NCBI GenBank assembly: GCA_021372615.1
Contig: JAJFUB010000018.1
Coordinates: forward strand, 8,193-72,192
From: a bacterium
GTDB taxonomy: Bacteria > Armatimonadota > Zipacnadia > Zipacnadales > UBA11051
Reading direction: 5' to 3'
DNA: 64,000 nt
Shown here: positions 2 through 60,648 of the stretch, one piece after another
Position numbering within the stretch: the first letter of the stretch is position 1
Layout of the letters: every line of letters starts with the position of its first letter
The notes under the pieces: model-generated
Told to the model about the DNA's origin: nothing
Database searches by the model: none
The model's input: only the letters and a program-made list of their open reading frames with translations
Made by a program: the position numbers and the translations under genes

Positions 2-310
2 GTGTGCGTGGCGTGCTATGAGGCGGAGATGAACGTGGTGCTGCACGCGCGTTCGGGGTATGTGGCCGTGGACCTGTTCCCCGACCGCGTGGTGCTGCAG
101 ATCCTGGACCAGGGGCCGGGGATCGAGGACGTGGCGTTGGCGATGACGCCGGGGTGGTCGTCGGCCTCCGAAGAGGCCCGGGCACTCGGGTTCGGCGCGG
201 GCATGGGGCTGCCGAACATCAAGGCGCAGGCGGACGCGATGGAGATCGAGAGCGAGCCAGGGCAGGGCGTGAAGATGCGCCTGGTGTTTGAAATGAGGGC
301 GAACCCGTGA
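2..310 (+). CDS. histidine kinase-like ATPase / anti-sigma-regulatory-factor-like protein, hydrogenase-associated (5' end truncated by window edge)
   Basis: HATPase_c-like C-terminal motifs (LDQGPGIED, GFGAGMGLPNIK, GQGVKMRLVFE). The stop overlaps the next start (translational coupling). It sits in a hydrogenase operon context. Confidence 0.55.
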   Translation: MCVACYEAEMNVVLHARSGYVAVDLFPDRVVLQILDQGPGIEDVALAMTPGWSSASEEARALGFGAGMGLPNIKAQADAMEIESEPGQGVKMRLVFEMRANP

Positions 311-648
311 GCGTGACCGTGTCCGCAGTGATCGAGCGGCTGGGCCTGCAGGCGGCGGGGGGCGCCGACAATACCGAGACCGAAGTCACCGGCGCGCAGG
401 TGTGCGACCTGCTGAGCCACGTCATGGCCCAGGGACGCGCGGGGCAAGTCTGGATCACGATCCAGACCCACGCCAACATCATCGCCGTGGCGGCGCTGGC
501 CAAGCTGGCGGCGGTGATCGTGGCCGGCGGTTTCGCGCCCGAGGAAGAGACGATCATGCGGGCCGAGGAGGAGGGCATTGCGCTGCTGCTGTCGCGGGAG
601 AAGGCGTACACGCTGGCGGGGCAGTTGTATGAGATGGGAGTGAGGTGA
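307..648 (+). CDS. DRTGG domain protein (hydrogenase-operon accessory)
   Basis: 113 aa with a DRTGG-like pattern (HVMAQGRAGQVWITIQTHANIIAVAALAKLAAVIVAGG). GTG start overlaps the upstream stop. Confidence 0.55.
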   Translation: MSVTVSAVIERLGLQAAGGADNTETEVTGAQVCDLLSHVMAQGRAGQVWITIQTHANIIAVAALAKLAAVIVAGGFAPEEETIMRAEEEGIALLLSREKAYTLAGQLYEMGVR

Positions 649-845
649 GGGGCGGGGGTTGGGGATTGGGCATTGGGGATTGGGGACGGCGGAGGCAACG
701 GCTCGGATCTGCCTCACCCCCGGCGGCGGGGCCCGCCGCACACGTGAGACCGCAAGCGGTCTCGGCGGCACCCGCCGCCTGAGTGTTGCCCTACATGCCC
801 GGCCTTCACCAATGCCCAGTACCCAATGCCCAATCCCTAATGCCC
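649..845. repeat. G-tract spacer GGGGTTGGGGATTGGGCATTGGGGATTGGGG (649-690) and an inverted C-tract copy (812-845) flanking an intergenic region that also carries the ATCTGCCTCACCCCCGGC and GGCACCCGCCGCCTGAGTG motifs
   Basis: Four or more G-runs of 3-4 with 1-4-nt loops (canonical G-quadruplex motif) immediately after the DRTGG stop. The reverse-complement arrangement occurs 120 bp downstream. Confidence 0.6.
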
Positions 846-1706
846 AACACCTCCCTAGACCTGCATATCCATTCGGCGCTGTCACCGTGCGCTGACGAGG
901 CGATGCGGCCACCAGCGGTGCTGCTGACAGCGGAGCGGCGGGGGCTGGACGTGGTGGGGATCGTGGACCACTCAACGGGGCGGAACGGGTGGGCGTTTCT
1001 GACGGCGGCGGCGGCGTTTGAGGTGCAGGTGCTGGCGGGCCTGGAGATCGAGAGCAGTGAGGGCGTGCACCTGCTGGCGCTGTTCGATGGTCGCGAGGCG
1101 TTGGAGGATTTCGACGGGCTGGTGGCGCAACATCTGCCCGGCGGGTTGAACCGGCCGGAGGTGCTGGGGCCGCAACTACTGCTAGATGAGTGGGGCGAAG
1201 TGATCGGGGAGGAGCAGCGGCTGCTCATCACGGCGGTGGACCTGGGGCTGGAGCGGCTGGTGGCCATGATCGCCGATCATGGGGGGCTGAGCATCGCTGC
1301 TCACGTGGACCGGAATGCGAACGGGCTCCTGCCGACGCTGGGGTTCGTGCCGCCGAAGCTGCAGGTGGACCTACTGGAAGTGTCGTGGCGCATGACGCCG
1401 GCGGAGGCGCGGCGGCGGTGGCCGGAACTGGAGGCGTGGCCGCTGATCCGTAGCTCGGATGCGCATGTGCTGGAGGAGATCGGGCAGGGGAGCACGGTGG
1501 TGGAGGGGGGAGGCAAAGGCGACGGCTCCTCACCCCTACCCCTCTCCCTCGCGCGCGGTGAGGCTGCGCGCTCCGGAGAGGGGAACGGCAACGGCAAAGG
1601 CAACGGCAGCGACAACGGCTTGCCGGCTGGAAGCCGGCGCTCCTACGGCCTGCGGCAGTGGGTAGGGGAACTGGCGGAGGCGGTGCGGGTGAGCGAGGAT
1701 GCGTGA
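840..1706 (+). CDS. PHP (polymerase/histidinol-phosphatase) domain protein. The C-terminal region carries an in-frame palindromic repeat insertion.
   Basis: N-terminal LDLHIHSALSPCAD, VGIVDHST and later AAHVDRN motifs typical of PHP metal sites. The six-frame ORF starts at 783 but an internal Met at 840 precedes the PHP motif. The ORF runs through repeat element 1528-1650. Confidence 0.6.
   Translation: MPNTSLDLHIHSALSPCADEAMRPPAVLLTAERRGLDVVGIVDHSTGRNGWAFLTAAAAFEVQVLAGLEIESSEGVHLLALFDGREALEDFDGLVAQHLPGGLNRPEVLGPQLLLDEWGEVIGEEQRLLITAVDLGLERLVAMIADHGGLSIAAHVDRNANGLLPTLGFVPPKLQVDLLEVSWRMTPAEARRRWPELEAWPLIRSSDAHVLEEIGQGSTVVEGGGKGDGSSPLPLSLARGEAARSGEGNGNGKGNGSDNGLPAGSRRSYGLRQWVGELAEAVRVSEDA
1528..1650. 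repeat. family-1 palindromic element (CCTCACCCCTACCCCTCTCCCTCGC...GCTCCGGAGAGGGGAACGGCAACGGC) plus family-2 element (GCCGGCTGGAAGCCGGCGCTCCTACGG), lying inside the PHP ORF
   Basis: Near-identical copies at 10560-10650, 11440-11500, 20090-20150, 27860-27900 and 27990-28050. Family-2 copies at 34875-34905, 53600-53650, 30775-30810 and 56672-56700. Confidence 0.8.
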
Positions 1707-2244
1707 GCTGGCCCTGCACCTGTTGGATATCGCGCGGAACTCGATCGAGGCCGGGGCGACGGCGCTGGAGCTCGAGGTGTGTGAGGAGCCGGCGGCCGAT
1801 GAGTTGACATTCCGCGTGCGGGACAATGGGCGGGGGATGGACGCGGAAGCCCTGCGGCGAGCGACCGATCCTTTTTTTTCAACTCGCACGACGAGGAAGC
1901 AGGGATTGGGTCTCTCGTTGTTGAAGGAAGCCTGCGAGCGGAGCGAGGGGGGGCTCGAGGTGGAGTCGGCGCCAGGGGTCGGAACTACGGTGCGCGGGCG
2001 GATGCGCCTGTCGCATTTGGATCGGCCGCCGCTGGGGAAGATGGGGGGCGTGATCCAGGCGCTGGCATGTGAGGGGGAGCGGGTGAGCTTGCGGTACCGG
2101 CACGTGGTGGGGGGCCGGGAGTTCGTGCTGGATACCGAGGCAGTACGCCGGGAGCTAGGCGGGGGGAGGGTGGATGACCCGGCGGTGCTATGCTGGATTG
2201 AGCGGAGTGTAGAGGAGGGACTGACCGCGCTACACTCGGTTTGA
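1699..2244 (+). CDS. histidine kinase-like ATPase (HATPase_c only, no sensor domain), hydrogenase-operon accessory
   Basis: N/G1/G2-box-like motifs (LLDIARNSIEAGA, VRDNGRGMD, GLGLSLLKEACE, GVGTTV). Its start overlaps the PHP stop. Confidence 0.65.
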   Translation: MRELALHLLDIARNSIEAGATALELEVCEEPAADELTFRVRDNGRGMDAEALRRATDPFFSTRTTRKQGLGLSLLKEACERSEGGLEVESAPGVGTTVRGRMRLSHLDRPPLGKMGGVIQALACEGERVSLRYRHVVGGREFVLDTEAVRRELGGGRVDDPAVLCWIERSVEEGLTALHSV

Positions 2245-2362
2245 GACGGCAGGCGGTGGGGTCGGCAACAGGCGTGAAAGTCGTGGATCAGCGACTGTGA
2301 CCGTGCTCGCAGAAGGGTGTATGCGAGCCGGGAGCAGTCGCTACGGTTGGTGGTGTAGCCAC

Positions 2363-2380
2363 TTGTGACTTTTTTCACAA
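2363..2380. promoter_or_regulatory. Rex-type (redox-sensing repressor) operator-like palindrome upstream of the hydrogenase structural genes
   Basis: TTGTGAC-TTTT-TTCACAA has one mismatch to the Rex consensus TTGTGAA-N4-TTCACAA. It also contains TGTGA-N6-TCACA (CRP-like). It lies 47 bp upstream of the ferredoxin/hydC/hydB/hydA block. Confidence 0.5.
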
Positions 2381-2426
2381 TCTCAATCAGTTTGCATCGC
2401 ACCGTATCGGAAGGAGGCAGTACCAG

Positions 2427-2801
2427 GTGAAAACGCGTCAAGACCTGCAGGCTCTGCGTGAGAAAGCCAGAGCGGCCCTGGCTGTCCGAGACAGCCAGGG
2501 CGGGGCACGGGTGGTTATCGCCATGGGCACGTGCGGGATCGGGGCCGGGGCCCGAGAGGTGCTGGGAGCGCTGCTGGACGAGCTGTCCTTGCGGGGCCTG
2601 AGCGAGGTGACGGTGTCCCAGACAGGCTGCAAGGGGCTGTGCGACCAGGAGCCGCTGGTGGAGGTGCACATGCCGGGGATGCCGTCGGTGAGCTACGGGC
2701 GGGTGACGCCGCAGATCATGCGGCGGATCGTGGCCGAGCAGATCGTGAATGGTCAGGTGGTATCGGAGTATGCCATCGCGACCGGAACGGAGGCGGGTTA
2801 G
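2427..2801 (+). CDS. thioredoxin-like [2Fe-2S] ferredoxin (small hydrogenase subunit, HydD-like)
   Basis: 124 aa with a CxxxxC...CxxC pattern (GTCGIGAGA...GCKGLCDQEP) as in the NuoE C-terminal/2Fe-2S Trx-like fold. GTG start with GGAAGGAGG RBS at 2411-2419. Confidence 0.7.
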   Translation: MKTRQDLQALREKARAALAVRDSQGGARVVIAMGTCGIGAGAREVLGALLDELSLRGLSEVTVSQTGCKGLCDQEPLVEVHMPGMPSVSYGRVTPQIMRRIVAEQIVNGQVVSEYAIATGTEAG

Positions 2802-3281
2802 ATGGCTGCGGCCGAGAACATCTGTTGCGAGACCTTCGGCAAGATTGACGAGATCATCGCCCGCAAGGGGAGCACCCCGGACAGCCTGATCGAGGTGCTG
2901 CACGGGGTGCAGGAGGAGCTGGGCTACCTACCCCAGGCGGTGCAGGAGTATGTGGCCGGGAAGCTGGGGCTGGCCGTGGGGGCCGTGGAAGGGGTCATCA
3001 CCTTCTACAGCTTCTTCACGACCGTGCCGCGCGGGCGGCACAGCATCAAGGTCTGCCAGGGCACGGCCTGCTATGTGCGCGGCGGCAAGCGGGTGCTGGA
3101 GGCGGTGGCGAAGCACTGCGGGTGCGGCGTGGGCGAGACCTCCGAGGACATGCGCTACAGCCTGGACGTGGTGCGCTGCGTCGGGGCGTGCGGGCTGTCA
3201 CCGGTGATGACGGTCGGCGAGGACATCTACGAGCGGGTCAAGCCGACGAAGGTCACGGACATTCTGAACAAGTACGAGTGA
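2802..3281 (+). CDS. hydC: NADH:quinone oxidoreductase subunit E-like [2Fe-2S] protein (hydrogenase HydC/gamma)
   Basis: NuoE signature CQGTACYVRGG...CGCGVGETSEDMRYSLDVVRCVGACGLSPVMTV. ATG immediately follows the upstream stop. Confidence 0.85.
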   Translation: MAAAENICCETFGKIDEIIARKGSTPDSLIEVLHGVQEELGYLPQAVQEYVAGKLGLAVGAVEGVITFYSFFTTVPRGRHSIKVCQGTACYVRGGKRVLEAVAKHCGCGVGETSEDMRYSLDVVRCVGACGLSPVMTVGEDIYERVKPTKVTDILNKYE

Positions 3282-3332
3282 GGTGGGGGTTAGGCATTGG
3301 GGATTGGGCTTTGGGGCTTTGGGATCGGCAAT
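3282..3332. repeat. G-tract spacer (GGTGGGGGTTAGGCATTGGGGATTGGGCTTTGGGGCTTTGGG) between hydC and hydB
   Basis: Same motif family as 649-690, directly after a stop codon and before the RBS. Confidence 0.6.
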
Positions 3333-3345
3333 CAGGAGGATACAG

Positions 3346-6300
3346 ATGCCTGCGTTTAGATCACATGTGCTGGTGTGCGCCGGGGCCGGTTGCGTCTCGT
3401 CGGGGTCACAAGCCGTGGCGGACGCGCTGGAACAGGCGATTGTCGAGAGCGGCCTGAGCGGAGAGATCAAGGTCATCCGCACGGGCTGCATGGGATCGTG
3501 CGACCTGGGGCCGGTGGCCGTGGTGTATCCCGAGGGCGTCTTCTATCAGAAGCTGACGCCGGACGACTGCGCGGTGCTCGTCGAGGAGCACCTGCTGAAG
3601 GGGCGACCGGTGGAGCGGCTGATGTACATGCCGACCGAGGAGTACAAGCCGGCGCTAAGCATGGACGAGATCCCCTTCTTCTCGCTACAGCAGAAGGTCG
3701 TGCTGCGCAACTGCGGCGAGATTGACCCGGGGAACATCGAGGAATACATCGCGCGCGACGGCTACGAGGCGCTGGCCAAGGCGCTGACCGAGATGACGCC
3801 GCAGCAGGTCATCGAGGAGGTCAAGCAGTCGGGCCTGCGCGGGCGCGGGGGCGGCGGCTTCCCGACGGGGCTGAAGTGGGAGCTGACCGCCAAGAGCGCA
3901 GAGACGCCCAAGTACGTGGTGTGCAATGCGGACGAGGGCGACCCGGGCGCGTTCATGGACCGGAGCGTGCTGGAGGGCGACCCGCACAGCGTCATCGAGG
4001 CGATGACCATCGCGGGCTACGCCATCGGGGCGAACAAGGGCTATGTGTACGTGCGGGCGGAGTACCCGCTGGCCATCGCGCGGCTGGGCATGGCGCTGGA
4101 ACAGGCGCGGCAGTTGGGCCTGCTGGGGCAGAACGTCTTCGGGTCGGAGCACAGCTTCGACATCGAGATGCGCATGGGCGCCGGGGCGTTCGTGTGCGGC
4201 GAGGAGACGGCGCTGATGGCCTCCATCGAGGGCCGGCGCGGCGAGCCGCGGCCCCGTCCCCCCTTCCCCGCCCAGAAGGGCCTCTACAACAAGCCCACGC
4301 TGCTCAACAACGTGGAGACGTACGCGAACATCGCGCCGATCATCCTCCACGGCGGGCAGTGGCTGGCGAGCATCGGCACCGAGAAGAGCAAGGGGACGAA
4401 GGTGTTCGCGCTGGCCGGGCATGTGAACAACACGGGCCTGGTGGAGGTGCCCATGGGCACGCCGCTGGGCACGATCATCTACGAGATCGGCGGCGGCATC
4501 CGCAACGGGCGGAAGTTCAAGGCGGCGCAGTCGGGCGGGCCGTCGGGCGGGTGCATCCCCAAGGAGCACCTGAACACGCCGGTGGATTACGAGAGCCTCA
4601 AGGAGCTGGGCTCGATCATGGGCTCCGGCGGCCTGATCGTGATGGATGACACGACGTGCATGGTGGACCTGGCGCGGTTCTTCCTGGAGTTCGTGCAGGA
4701 CGAATCGTGCGGCAAGTGCCCGCCGTGCCGCATCGGGACCAAGCGGATGCTGGAGATTCTCGAGCGCATCTGCGCCGGGCAGGGGCGGGAAGGCGACATC
4801 GAGCTGCTCATCGAGCTGGGCGAGCAGATCAAGCTGACCAGCCTGTGCGGCCTGGGGCAGACAGCGCCGAACCCGGTGCTGAGCACCATCCGGTACTTCC
4901 GCGATGAGTATGAGGAGCACATCCGCGACAAGCACTGCCGCGCGGGAGTGTGCACCGAGATGATGAAGGCGCCGTGCGAACACGCCTGCCCGGCCGGGGT
5001 GGATGTGCCGGCGTACGTGGCGCTGATCGCCGAGGGGCGCTTCGACGAGGCCTACGACGTGATCCGCGACACGAACCCCTTCCCGTCGGTGTGCGGGCGG
5101 GTGTGCACGGCGTACTGCGAGCTGCAGTGCCGGCGGGGGCAACTGGATGACCCGGTGGCCATCCGGCTGCTGAAGCGGGCAGCGGCGGACCACCACACGC
5201 GGCCGTGGCAGCCGCCCCTGGAGCCGCAGCGGCACCAGCGGGTGGCCATCGTGGGAGGAGGCCCGGCGGGGCTGACGGCGGCGGCGGACCTGGTGCGCAA
5301 GGGGTACGAGGTGACGGTGTTCGAGAAGGAGGCGCTGCCGGGCGGGATGATGATGCTCGGAATCCCCGAATACCGCCTGCCCCAGGATGTGCTGCAGCAG
5401 GAGATCCAGGAGATCGTGAACCTGGGCGTGGAGCTGAAGACCGGGGTGAGCTTCGGACGGGACATCACGCTGCAGAGCCTATCTGACGACGGATACGGGG
5501 CGATCCTGCTGGCGGTCGGATGCCAGGAGGGCATGCCCCTGGAGGCGCCCGGCAGCGAGGCTGAGGGCGTCATGGACGCAGTCAAGTTCCTGCGGGACGT
5601 GAACCTGCAACGCCCGCCGGCGATCGGCAAGCGGGTGGCGGTGATCGGGGGCGGAGACACGGCCATCGACTCGGCGCGGTCGGCGCTGCGGTTGGGGGCC
5701 GACGAAGTGCACCTGGTGTACCGGCGGACCGAGGAGGAGATGCCGGCCCATGCGGCCGAGATCGCCGAGGCGCGGCATGAGGGAGTGCAGTTCCACTTCC
5801 TGGCAGCGCCCAAGGAGGTCACGGTCGAGGACGGCAAGGTGGTCGGGATGGTGTGCCAGCAGATGCGGCTGGGCGACTTCGACCGCAGTGGCCGGCGGCG
5901 GCCCGAGCCCGTAGAGGGCGCGGACTTCGCGCTGGAGGTGGACACGATCATCCCGGCCATCGGCCAGAAGATCACCACCGACTGCCTGTGCGTGGAGGCG
6001 TCGCGCGGGAAGCTGTGCGCCGACCCGCGGACCCTGGTGACCAACCTGCCGCACGTGTTCGCGGCGGGCGACGCGACCGACGGGCCGATGACCGTCGTGG
6101 ACGCGATCGCGGACGGGCACAAGGCGGCCCGGGCCATCCACAGCTTCCTGTCCGGCGAGCCGCTGCCGGAGCCGAAGCGGCGAGCCAAGACGAAGGTGAT
6201 GGCCGAGGCGATGGCGGCGCTGGAGGAGGCGACGGAGGAGGAGCCCGCGGCGGAGCCGCAGCGTGTGTCGGATGCCTACCGGCGCTCAGGGTTCTGCGAG

Positions 6301-6387
6301 GTGGAGCTGGGGTACTCGATGCCGGTGGCGTGCCGAGAGGCGTCGCGGTGCCTGCACTGCGACTTCGTGATGGTGGAGGAGGAGTAG
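3346..6387 (+). CDS. hydB: NuoF-like flavoprotein subunit of [FeFe] hydrogenase (HydB/beta). It has an N-terminal Trx-like [2Fe-2S] domain and a C-terminal glutamate-synthase-small-subunit (GltD/NfnB/DPD-like) FAD/NAD(P)H domain.
   Basis: The ATG at 3346 has an AGGAGG RBS; the six-frame ORF start at 3283 lies in a G-tract spacer. NuoF motifs are present (GRGGGGFPTGLKWE, CGKCPPCRIG, SLCGLGQTAPNPV). GltD/DPD-like Fe-S helical domain (CEHACPAGVDVPAYV, CGRVCTAYCELQC). Rossmann folds VAIVGGGPAGLTAAADL and VAVIGGGDTAIDSAR. Confidence 0.85.
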   Translation: MPAFRSHVLVCAGAGCVSSGSQAVADALEQAIVESGLSGEIKVIRTGCMGSCDLGPVAVVYPEGVFYQKLTPDDCAVLVEEHLLKGRPVERLMYMPTEEYKPALSMDEIPFFSLQQKVVLRNCGEIDPGNIEEYIARDGYEALAKALTEMTPQQVIEEVKQSGLRGRGGGGFPTGLKWELTAKSAETPKYVVCNADEGDPGAFMDRSVLEGDPHSVIEAMTIAGYAIGANKGYVYVRAEYPLAIARLGMALEQARQLGLLGQNVFGSEHSFDIEMRMGAGAFVCGEETALMASIEGRRGEPRPRPPFPAQKGLYNKPTLLNNVETYANIAPIILHGGQWLASIGTEKSKGTKVFALAGHVNNTGLVEVPMGTPLGTIIYEIGGGIRNGRKFKAAQSGGPSGGCIPKEHLNTPVDYESLKELGSIMGSGGLIVMDDTTCMVDLARFFLEFVQDESCGKCPPCRIGTKRMLEILERICAGQGREGDIELLIELGEQIKLTSLCGLGQTAPNPVLSTIRYFRDEYEEHIRDKHCRAGVCTEMMKAPCEHACPAGVDVPAYVALIAEGRFDEAYDVIRDTNPFPSVCGRVCTAYCELQCRRGQLDDPVAIRLLKRAAADHHTRPWQPPLEPQRHQRVAIVGGGPAGLTAAADLVRKGYEVTVFEKEALPGGMMMLGIPEYRLPQDVLQQEIQEIVNLGVELKTGVSFGRDITLQSLSDDGYGAILLAVGCQEGMPLEAPGSEAEGVMDAVKFLRDVNLQRPPAIGKRVAVIGGGDTAIDSARSALRLGADEVHLVYRRTEEEMPAHAAEIAEARHEGVQFHFLAAPKEVTVEDGKVVGMVCQQMRLGDFDRSGRRRPEPVEGADFALEVDTIIPAIGQKITTDCLCVEASRGKLCADPRTLVTNLPHVFAAGDATDGPMTVVDAIADGHKAARAIHSFLSGEPLPEPKRRAKTKVMAEAMAALEEATEEEPAAEPQRVSDAYRRSGFCEVELGYSMPVACREASRCLHCDFVMVEEE

Positions 6388-6567: not shown

Positions 6568-8304
6568 ATGTCAGGATTGAGCATAACGATCAACGGTCAG
6601 GCCGTGCAGGCAGAGCCCGGGATGACCGTGTTGCAGGCAGCCAAGGGCGCCGGGCTGAAGATCCCGACGCTGTGCCACCACCCGGACCTGCCGCCGATGG
6701 GGGCGTGCCGGGTGTGCCTGGTCGAGATCGAGGGCGAGCGCGCACTGCAGCCCTCGTGCACGTACCCGGTGCGGGAGGGGATGGTCATTCAGACCCACTC
6801 GCCGACGGTGCGGCAGGCGCGGCGTACGGTGGTGGAGCTGCTGCTGTCGGACCACCCGTCGGACTGCACGGCGTGCGCGCGCAACAAGAACTGCGAACTA
6901 CAGTCGCTGGCGGAGGAGTTGGGGATTCGCGAGGTGCGAGTGAAGGCGCCGGCGCCAGGCCACGCGGTGGATGACTCGAGTCTGGCCGTGGTGCGCGACC
7001 CGGACAAGTGCATCCTGTGCCGGCGGTGCCTGCAGACGTGCGACCAGATCCAGGGCGTGTCGGGGCTGCGCATCAAGGGCCGCGGGTATGATAGCGTGGT
7101 CGGGGCGCCGTTCGATACGCCGCTGGGCCACGCGCTGTGCGTGAACTGCGGGCAGTGCATCAACCGGTGCCCGACCGGGGCGCTGACAGAGAAGACGCAG
7201 ATCCCCGAGGTCTGGGCGGCGCTGGAAGACCCGACCACGTTCACCGTGGTGCAGACGGCGCCGGCCGTGCGCATCGCGCTGGGCGAGGCGCTGGGGATGC
7301 CGGTGGGCGAGATCGTGACCGGGAAGATGACCTCGGCGCTGCGGCTGCTCGGGTTTGACCGAGTGTTCGACACGGACTTCACGGCCGATCTGACCATTAT
7401 GGAAGAAGGCTTCGAGCTGATCAAGCGGGTGAAGGAGGGCGGGGTGCTGCCGCAGCTCACCTCGTGCAGCCCGGGCTGGATCAAGTTCATCGAGCACTTC
7501 TACCCGGAACTGCTGCCGAACGTGTCGAGCTGCAAGTCGCCGCAGCAGATGTTCGGCGCCCTGGCCAAGACGTATTTCGCCGAGCAGGCGGGTGTGGACG
7601 CGGCGAAGATGAAGGTCGTGTCCATCATGCCATGTGTGGCCAAGAAGTTCGAGGCCGCCCGACCGGAGATGTGCGACTCGGGCTACCAGGACGTGGACTA
7701 TGTGCTGACCACCCGCGAGTTGGCGCAAATGATCAAGGAGAAGGGCATCGAGTTCGCGGCGCTGCCGGAGAGCGACTACGACGACCCGCTGGGCGAGTCC
7801 ACCGGGGCGGCGGTGATCTTCGGGGCGACCGGGGGCGTGATGGAGGCGGCGCTGCGTACGGCGTACGAGGTGCTCACCGGCGAGAAGCTGGAGGATGTCA
7901 ACATCGAGGCGGTGCGCGGGATGGAGGGCGTCCGCGAGGCGACGGTGATGGTCGGCGACCTGCCGGTGAAGGCGGCAGTGGCGCACGGGCTGTCCAACGC
8001 GGCGCAGGTGCTCGACAAGATCGTGGCGGGTGAAGCGGACTACCACTTCATCGAGATCATGTGCTGCCCGGGCGGGTGCCTGGGCGGGGGCGGGCAGCCG
8101 ATCCCCACGTCCCCGGAGATCCGGAAGCAACGGGCGGCGGCGATCTACCAGGCGGACCGTGACCTGCCCATCCGGCGCTCGCACGAGAACCCGTCCATCA
8201 AGGCGATCTATGAGAAGTTCCTGGGTGAGCCGCTGAGCCACAAGTCGCACCACCTGCTGCACACGGAGTATACGCCGCGGACGCGGGAGGCGGTGCAGGA
8301 GTAG
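6568..8304 (+). CDS. hydA: [FeFe] hydrogenase catalytic subunit (M3-type, HydA/alpha)
   Basis: N-terminal 2Fe-2S (CHHPDLPPMGACRVC). His-ligated and 2x[4Fe-4S] motifs (CTACARNKNCELQ, CILCRRCLQTC, CVNCGQCINRCP). H-cluster motifs L1 TSCSPGW (7459-7479), L2 MPCVAKKFEAARPEM and L3 EIMCCPGGCLGGGGQP (8053-8100). Confidence 0.9.
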   Translation: MSGLSITINGQAVQAEPGMTVLQAAKGAGLKIPTLCHHPDLPPMGACRVCLVEIEGERALQPSCTYPVREGMVIQTHSPTVRQARRTVVELLLSDHPSDCTACARNKNCELQSLAEELGIREVRVKAPAPGHAVDDSSLAVVRDPDKCILCRRCLQTCDQIQGVSGLRIKGRGYDSVVGAPFDTPLGHALCVNCGQCINRCPTGALTEKTQIPEVWAALEDPTTFTVVQTAPAVRIALGEALGMPVGEIVTGKMTSALRLLGFDRVFDTDFTADLTIMEEGFELIKRVKEGGVLPQLTSCSPGWIKFIEHFYPELLPNVSSCKSPQQMFGALAKTYFAEQAGVDAAKMKVVSIMPCVAKKFEAARPEMCDSGYQDVDYVLTTRELAQMIKEKGIEFAALPESDYDDPLGESTGAAVIFGATGGVMEAALRTAYEVLTGEKLEDVNIEAVRGMEGVREATVMVGDLPVKAAVAHGLSNAAQVLDKIVAGEADYHFIEIMCCPGGCLGGGGQPIPTSPEIRKQRAAAIYQADRDLPIRRSHENPSIKAIYEKFLGEPLSHKSHHLLHTEYTPRTREAVQE

Positions 8305-59634: not shown

Positions 59635-60177
59635 CTACGCGCCGAAGTAGCGCTTCAGCAGGCCGTAGAACCCGGCCGCATGGCGCGCCTCGTCCTTGCA
59701 GGCCTCGTGGACGCAGTCGTGGATGGCGTCCTGGTTCTCGGCCTTGCTGCGGGTCGCGATGTCCTTCTTGCCAGCGTTGGCGCCCGACTCGCCGGCCACG
59801 AGCTTCTCCAGGTTCTCCTTAGTGCTCTCGGACACGCCGCCGAGCAGTTCGCAGAACTGGGCGGCATGGTGCGCCTCTTCCCACGCCACGCGCTTCATGG
59901 CGTCGGCGATCTCCGGATAGCCCTCACGCTCGGCCTGCCGGGCCATGGCGATGTACATCCCCACTTCGGCGCACTCGCCCTGGAACTGCATCGTGAGGTC
60001 CTGCTCAAAGCCCGTGCCCTTGGCCACGCCGAGCTTGTTCCAGTCCACGAGCTGCAGCAACTCAGCCGCCGCGGCCAGTTGCTCGAACTTGGTGCTCGGG
60101 GCCTTGCAGTTCGGGCACTCCTTCGGCGCCTCCGACCCTTCGTGAACATACCCGCAAACAGTGCAGCGCCACTTCAT
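59635..60177 (-). CDS. reverse rubrerythrin (N-terminal rubredoxin-like, C-terminal ferritin-like di-iron domain)
   Basis: N-terminal CTVCGY...CPNC rubredoxin-like site. Di-iron E...ExxH motifs (ECAEVGMY, EEAHHA, EACKDEARHA). Confidence 0.85.
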   Translation of the reverse strand: MKWRCTVCGYVHEGSEAPKECPNCKAPSTKFEQLAAAAELLQLVDWNKLGVAKGTGFEQDLTMQFQGECAEVGMYIAMARQAEREGYPEIADAMKRVAWEEAHHAAQFCELLGGVSESTKENLEKLVAGESGANAGKKDIATRSKAENQDAIHDCVHEACKDEARHAAGFYGLLKRYFGA

Positions 60178-60204: not shown

Positions 60205-60648
60205 CTATGGTGTCTCGTGGGCGCAGCGCCCACATGTTCCCTGGATCAGGATGTCGCGGACCGTGAAGCCTTCCGGCACATCGGGCGGCTCGGCCATGGG
60301 CCCCAGGTCCCAGACGGTCCCGCACTCGGTGCAGATCGCGTGCTGGTGGTCGGAGGTGTCGGGGTCGAAGTGGGCCTTGCTCTCCAGGCCGTCCAGACGG
60401 CGCACGAAGCCCAGTTGCTCCAGCGTGTCCAGCGTATTGTAGATCGTGGCCGGCGCGACACACCCAAGCCGCTCCCGCACCTCGGCCACGACGGCCTCGG
60501 CGGTCGGGTGGGTGCGGTTCCCGGCCAGTATGTTGAGCACCGCCCGCCGTTGGGGGGTCATGCGCGCCCCTCGCTCGCGGAGCCGCTTCTCGGCTTCCCG
60601 GGGGCTCAGCATCGTGCCGTAGACATTCGCTCGTTCACTGTTGGGCAT
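60205..60648 (-). CDS. Fur-family transcriptional regulator (PerR-like peroxide sensor by context)
   Basis: Winged-helix Fur fold (TPQRRAVLNIL...HPTAEAV). C-terminal HxH...CxxC...CGRC metal sites. Adjacent to rubrerythrin. Confidence 0.8.
   Translation of the reverse strand: MPNSERANVYGTMLSPREAEKRLRERGARMTPQRRAVLNILAGNRTHPTAEAVVAEVRERLGCVAPATIYNTLDTLEQLGFVRRLDGLESKAHFDPDTSDHQHAICTECGTVWDLGPMAEPPDVPEGFTVRDILIQGTCGRCAHETP

Follow-up and report, generated by a model that had tools for sequence, protein, structure and literature searches.

A candidate Rex-type operator before the ferredoxin-hydC-hydB-hydA operon of an uncultured Armatimonadia bacterium

Which regulator, if any, reads the palindrome that stands before the [FeFe] hydrogenase genes of this Armatimonadia bacterium? 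The 18-bp site, TTGTGACTTTTTTCACAA, can be taken in two ways: it departs from the Rex consensus TTGTGAA-N4-TTCACAA by a single mismatch, a C at position 7, and it matches the CRP/FNR-type pattern TGTGA-N6-TCACA with no mismatch at all. Both fits had been put forward in an earlier note on this DNA and both were confirmed, the Rex match being expected by chance only some 0.0005-0.001 times per window, by which we mean the whole 64-kb stretch of DNA that was analysed (for one mismatch or fewer, 3000 mononucleotide shuffles gave 0.001 per window and an analytical estimate 0.0005). None of 100 dinucleotide shuffles of the window gave a match with up to one mismatch, and positions 2363-2380 were the sole match to the Rex consensus in the window even with three mismatches allowed. 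As the window has a G+C content of 68.5%, a match of 14 specified A+T-rich bases is rare. The palindrome is a real regulatory site, beyond what chance would supply. We found no second Rex box before the other redox genes of the 64 kb with up to three mismatches, a small sample in which the genes for an alcohol dehydrogenase, a short-chain dehydrogenase and rubrerythrin had no box upstream.

Genes were called from third-position G+C together with Pfam matches, and all genes of the hydrogenase region lie on the plus strand (Table 1). The placement given in the earlier note stood as regards the gap, which measures 182 bp and precedes the ferredoxin-hydC-hydB-hydA block; the genes upstream of it, there called accessory genes, proved to be of signalling type (HATPase_c, DRTGG and PHP) and not maturases. 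The GTG at 2427 is the earliest possible start of the ferredoxin in its frame, and six orthologues that begin with MK(T/S)RE confirm it. HydC, HydB and HydA are as had been described, except that HydB carries in addition a C-terminal NfnB/GltD-like module: residues 25-563 match electron-bifurcating HydB (7q4v_B, E-value 3e-249), and residues 562-1027 find their matches among FAD/NAD(P)H modules of the NfnB/GltD-like type (9n5u_A NfnA, 4ylf_B and 9bov_A). The same HydB fusion occurs in metagenome-assembled genomes labelled Spirochaetales, Victivallales, Thermoguttaceae and Chloroflexota, and suggests that the hydrogenase may be coupled to NADP(H) in addition to NAD(H).

Table 1. Features of the window around the candidate operator, with the boxes of related loci and the downstream prophage-like genes
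Feature	Position	Strand	Remarks
Candidate operator	2363..2380	.	18-bp palindrome TTGTGACTTTTTTCACAA = TTGTGAC-TTTT-TTCACAA; minus strand TTGTGAA-AAAA-GTCACAA
Left half-site TTGTGAC	2363..2369	.	Rex-contacted G3, G5 and A6 kept; position 7 deviates
Right half-site TTCACAA	2374..2380	.	perfect Rex 7-nt half; invariant in 5/5 Armatimonadia sites
HATPase_c fragment	2-310	+	third-position G+C, Pfam
DRTGG gene	307-648	+	third-position G+C, Pfam
PHP gene	783-1706	+	third-position G+C, Pfam
HATPase_c (kinase-like) gene	1699..2244	+	last gene of signalling block 2-2244; Pfam
Non-coding gap holding the box	2245-2426		182 bp
Strong stem-loop	2290..2342	+	seen in the centroid fold; z = -3.4 over 2280-2400
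Shine-Dalgarno sequence	2410..2417	+	GAAGGAGG; 9 nt before GTG; conserved in L001, L081 and L082
Thioredoxin-like [2Fe-2S] ferredoxin gene	2427..2801	+	124 aa; first gene of the operon; weak PF01257 match
hydC	2802..3281	+	NuoE-like; PF01257
hydB	3283..6387	+	NuoF-like, fused to NfnB/GltD-like FAD/NAD(P)H module; 1034 aa
hydA	6568..8304	+	[FeFe] hydrogenase catalytic subunit; H-cluster motifs
Prophage-like block, terminase large subunit	9457		
Prophage-like block, portal	11666		
Prophage-like block, prohead protease	13325		
Prophage-like block, capsid	14218		
Prophage-like block, tail tube	21648		
Prophage-like block, endolysin	32639		
Box, window and L081	-64 before start		TTGTGACTTTTTTCACAA; L081 ferredoxin 98% identical
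Box, L001 and L082	-68 before start		ATGTGATTTTTTTCACAA
Box, L005 (same contig as L106)	-118 before start		TTGTGACGGCGTTCACAA
Box, L103	-134 before start		TCGTGACGGCGTTCACAA
Box, L101	-322 before start		TTGTGAACGGTTTCACAA; perfect Rex consensus
T-rich block and box, example	L131:1800-1855		
T-rich block and box, example	L139:1970-2022		
T-rich block and box, example	L155:1425-1476		
T-rich block and box, example	L147:3905-3959		

The box occupies the positions 47-64 nt before the ferredoxin start codon, its centre lying 55.5 nt before it, and the ribosome-binding site extends from -17 to -10. This ribosome-binding site (2410-2417) would put the transcription start upstream of approximately 2405 and within about 35 nt of the centre of the box, and a start so close to the box makes this a repressor position. 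As a consensus scan recognised no sigma-70-type promoter in the gap, we infer the overlap of box and promoter from these distances alone.

Rex operators (ROP; consensus TTGTGAANNNNTTCACAA) stand before [FeFe] hydrogenase operons in Caldicellulosiruptor, Thermoanaerobacterales and Thermotogales, and the present site shares with them its length as an 18-bp palindrome, its 7-nt half-sites and its place tens of bp before the first gene of a HydABC-type operon. The earlier note's statement that Rex control of such operons is well documented is borne out by C. bescii, where gel-shift work verified a Rex box that lies 39 bp before the five-gene hyd operon (PMC6391272); the C. bescii operon likewise includes small ferredoxin and kinase-like genes (PMC6391272). 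The structure of T. maritima Rex with DNA shows contacts to the bases equivalent to G3, G5 and A6 of the 18-mer (PMC8836258), and all three are intact in both halves of 2363-2380 (GTGA/TCAC). The natural T. maritima operator of TM0201, TTGAGAA-ATTT-ATCACAA, is itself off consensus at positions 4 and 12, and natural Rex sites can depart from it at positions 4, 7 and 12 (PMC8836258). Unlike those ROP systems, the site here lies in DNA of 68.5% G+C from an uncultured Armatimonadia bacterium, whose phylum is without a described Rex regulon; the box is found in a minority of related lineages, and HydB has its extra NfnB/GltD-like module. What we describe is a candidate Rex box before a HydABC-type operon, that is, a known kind of element in a phylum for which it had no prior description.

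The closest relatives of the HydB fusion (74-88% identity, in six genomes, five of them labelled Armatimonadia/Armatimonadetes and one candidate division WS1) have the same gene order in 6/6 genomes. The gap between the kinase-like gene and the ferredoxin gene carries the box in four Armatimonadia lineages, that of the window included (Table 1); the organism of L081, which shares the window's site, is probably of the same species, L001 (CAZZDO01) and L082 make up a second lineage, L005 (VGFC01) and L103 a third, and L101 the fourth. The half-sites are kept while the spacers vary (TTTT, GGCG, CGGT), the flanks of the boxes are unalignable between the three groups, and the T run is absent from the boxes of L005, L103 and L101. 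The right half is a perfect TTCACAA in all five Armatimonadia sites (TTGTGAA at the start of the other strand), T12 and A18 are likewise invariant in 5/5, and position 7 is A in 6/10 half-sites.

Some 20 Armatimonadia loci of comparable relatedness, each with at least 400 bp of upstream sequence, had no box, and a relaxed search, allowing up to two mismatches and reaching up to 6 kb upstream, brought no concealed box to light at the cluster's head in ~30 Armatimonadia loci. L094, with a HydB 90% identical to that of L005, is among those without a box, and CAYRFY01, JBDKRC01 and CAZRDB01 are boxless relatives. In L094 (4735-4775), L004 (702-778) and L006 (6214-6261) the gap has shrunk to ~30-80 bp and is boxless, so that the structural genes continue the upstream signalling operon. 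Because it is absent from most close relatives of the operon, the box is lineage-specific, which agrees with the description of Rex control of hydrogenases as taxon-specific and less conserved (PMC6391272). This comparison of near relatives shows a rapid rewiring of the hydrogenase control region, and the ~30 related loci show a fast turnover between two states, a separate promoter region with the box versus a lost gap with the genes fused to the signalling genes.

The wider set comprised 80 metagenome loci of the operon family, found with a ferredoxin alignment, in which we counted as a box any match to TTGTGA-N6-TCACAA with up to one mismatch, leaving position 7 out of the pattern and taking 500-bp windows as upstream sequence. 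There were 19 such boxes in 35.5 kb of upstream sequence versus 9 in 486 kb elsewhere, an enrichment of ~29-fold, with 0 in 20 shuffles; most of the boxes counted as elsewhere head a complete cluster of the order DRTGG-HATPase_c-HydS-like-DRTGG-PHP-HATPase_c-fdx-hydCBA, for instance that of L131, in which the box ends 13 nt before the ATG of the cluster's first gene. The distant boxes read TTGTGAA-N4-nTCAC(A/G)A, and position 7 is A in 22/34 of the distant half-sites, though it had no part in site selection. Two side observations concern the surroundings of the distant boxes: a conserved T-rich block (e.g., TTGTTTTTGTAC) lies 10-15 nt upstream of the Rex-like box in distant loci (Table 1), and L137, L138, L147, L151 and L157 have two boxes 144-168 bp apart. 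They may represent a promoter element, or paired operators.

In two loci, L066 (Spirochaetales) and L011 (Victivallales), a rex gene was found beside the hydrogenase genes, with 37-39% identity to B. subtilis Rex and E-values of 1e-36 to 1e-37 (39% and 2e-37 for L066). The rex of L066 is the first gene of the hydrogenase operon, with TTGTGAATAATATCACAT lying 80 bp before it, and in L011 rex abuts the operon. Both loci have the same hydrogenase operon family and the same type of box as the window; unlike these loci with rex in cis, however, the window and the loci of its Armatimonadia relatives are without rex. Three proteins, B. subtilis Rex, T. thermophilus Rex and E. coli CRP, served as tblastn queries against the window and 160 loci: for rex, only L011 and L066 matched, no Armatimonadia locus and not the window, and E. 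coli CRP had no match in the window or the 160 loci. Pfam searches of all called window genes recovered no rex or crp/fnr, and the sole DNA-binding regulator that they recognised in the window was a Fur-family gene. This gene (60205-60648, minus strand) adjoins the rubrerythrin gene (59635-60177, minus strand), and the two look like a PerR-type oxidative-stress pair. The best 120 matches of a protein search with Thermus Rex were all to Thermus, Meiothermus or unlabelled sequences, and our literature search found no paper linking Rex to Armatimonadota. The ambiguity of the cognate regulator, raised in the earlier note, persists to the extent that the window and the Armatimonadia loci have neither rex nor crp/fnr; it is lessened by the 7-nt half-site, which favours Rex over CRP.

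Taking these results together, we think it probable that the palindrome is the operator of a Rex-family dimeric redox-sensing repressor of fdx-hydC-hydB-hydA. The 7-nt half-site TTGTGAA, with A enriched at position 7, fits Rex better than the 5-nt CRP core, and as this sequence signature is that of the well-known NADH-sensing repressor Rex, the site would be an ordinary kind of switch. We infer the Rex identity, the promoter overlap and the NADH response, and draw the mechanism from the Rex family. By that analogy, the site would be placed on or just beside the promoter of fdx-hydC-hydB-hydA, and at low NADH/NAD+ Rex, NAD+-bound or free, would sit on TTGTGAC-N4-TTCACAA and block transcription. 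When fermentation raises NADH, Rex would bind NADH, its DNA-binding domains would move apart and it would leave the DNA; the hydrogenase would then be made, and surplus reducing power would be discarded as H2 with re-oxidation of the reduced carriers. To our knowledge, no transcriptional regulon has been described for the almost uncultured phylum Armatimonadota. If our reading is true, fermentative Armatimonadota are to be added to the bacteria in which Rex governs H2 production according to NADH/NAD+, and the box should help in the annotation of metagenome-assembled genomes and in reconstructing regulons; the understanding of Rex or of hydrogenase regulation is unchanged by it.

A regulator of the CRP/FNR family (CRP, ArcR or HcpR-like) might instead activate or repress the operon in response to cAMP, redox or another signal, which we regard as possible but doubtful. 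The box has the 5-nt cores and the 6-nt spacing of CRP-class sites, so that the match to TGTGA-N6-TCACA is perfect, and both the absence of rex from the Armatimonadia sequence examined and the lack of Rex literature found for the phylum speak for such a regulator. However, neither tblastn (window and loci) nor Pfam (window genes) detected a CRP/FNR gene, and no member of the family is encoded nearby. In addition, conservation extends beyond the 5-nt cores (T12 and A18 invariant in 5/5 sites, A7 enriched family-wide), and the box differs from CRP-class sites in the conserved T-T that precedes the core and the A that follows GTGA, which give the half-site TTGTGAA. In the E. coli CRP consensus TGTGA stands between an A and a T, and these flanks do not fit the box. 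The position is also unfavourable: with class II geometry (-41.5) transcription would begin near 2413, within the ribosome-binding site, and with class I geometry (-61.5) past the start codon, so that the box is too near the start codon for class I or class II activation. Finally, L066 has rex in cis with the same motif.

More broadly, Armatimonadia may be without Rex and the box may be read by another regulator, possibly the DNA-binding endpoint of the HATPase_c/DRTGG/PHP (HydS-type) block, a state of affairs that we consider distinctly unlikely. If a non-Rex regulator were the true reader, the box would report H2 or another signal and not NADH, and its patchy occurrence would mark the lineages in which the structural genes are uncoupled from the signalling operon. 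The specific version, in which the other regulator is fed by the adjacent HATPase_c, DRTGG and PHP signalling genes (joined in relatives by a HydS-like gene) and senses H2, not NADH, seems to us quite improbable. It draws on the fact that the box always accompanies a cluster of signalling plus hydrogenase genes and that in distant loci it stands at the head of the signalling genes; we know of no established output for such sensory clusters. Against it, the motif is indistinguishable from the Rex consensus, the cluster encodes no DNA-binding protein, and the same box is accompanied by rex in cis in L066.

That the box is merely A+T-rich intergenic sequence without function, arisen by chance, we judge very improbable. 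Most related loci are without the box and the A+T content of intergenic DNA is locally above that of the window as a whole, as chance would allow, but an expectation of ~0.001 per window, the independent recurrence of the box in the same gap between unalignable flanks, and the ~29-fold upstream enrichment across the family all argue against chance. Scarcely credible is the proposal that the palindrome is RNA or DNA secondary structure, whether as a small hairpin or within an intrinsic terminator of the upstream genes: an RNA fold does predict a 6-bp hairpin with a U-rich loop and a terminator scan flags 2349-2363 and the T run that follows, but the stem has only six A/U-rich pairs, the arms are conserved in sequence without covariation, L005 and L101 have GGCG or CGGT where the T run would stand, and an Rfam search of 2150-2500 returned no match. 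Hairpin and chance jointly keep a small share of the probability.

The gap does contain a strong stem-loop (Table 1), which follows the upstream gene's stop codon and precedes the operator. In its L001 counterpart the inner stem differs in sequence with the pairing kept, and in that of L081 there are two changes, both in the outer left arm. It may form the 3' end of the upstream transcript, without a U tract. Neither this hairpin nor a motif in the hydB-hydA gap was a dispersed repeat when tested as such. The weak terminator-like match at 2349-2363 plus T run was rejected as a terminator, because its stem is short (six pairs with G-T allowed, only three of them G-C) and L005 and L101 do not share the T run.

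Some further features of the locus lie within or beyond hydA. The first H-cluster motif of HydA (residues 298-304, window 7459-7479) reads TSCSPGW, the textbook form being TSCCPGW; as 65/77 HydA homologues of the fetched loci carry TSCSPGW, it is a common variant in this hydrogenase group. In L002, L004 and L006 a HydS-like sensory hydrogenase gene lies 3' of hydA, which was not seen in the window, where a DUF1559/N-methyl protein gene follows hydA. The window has no tRNA genes. Close 3' of hydA, after that one DUF1559 gene, there is a prophage-like block (9457-33568), the recognisable genes of which are given in Table 1.
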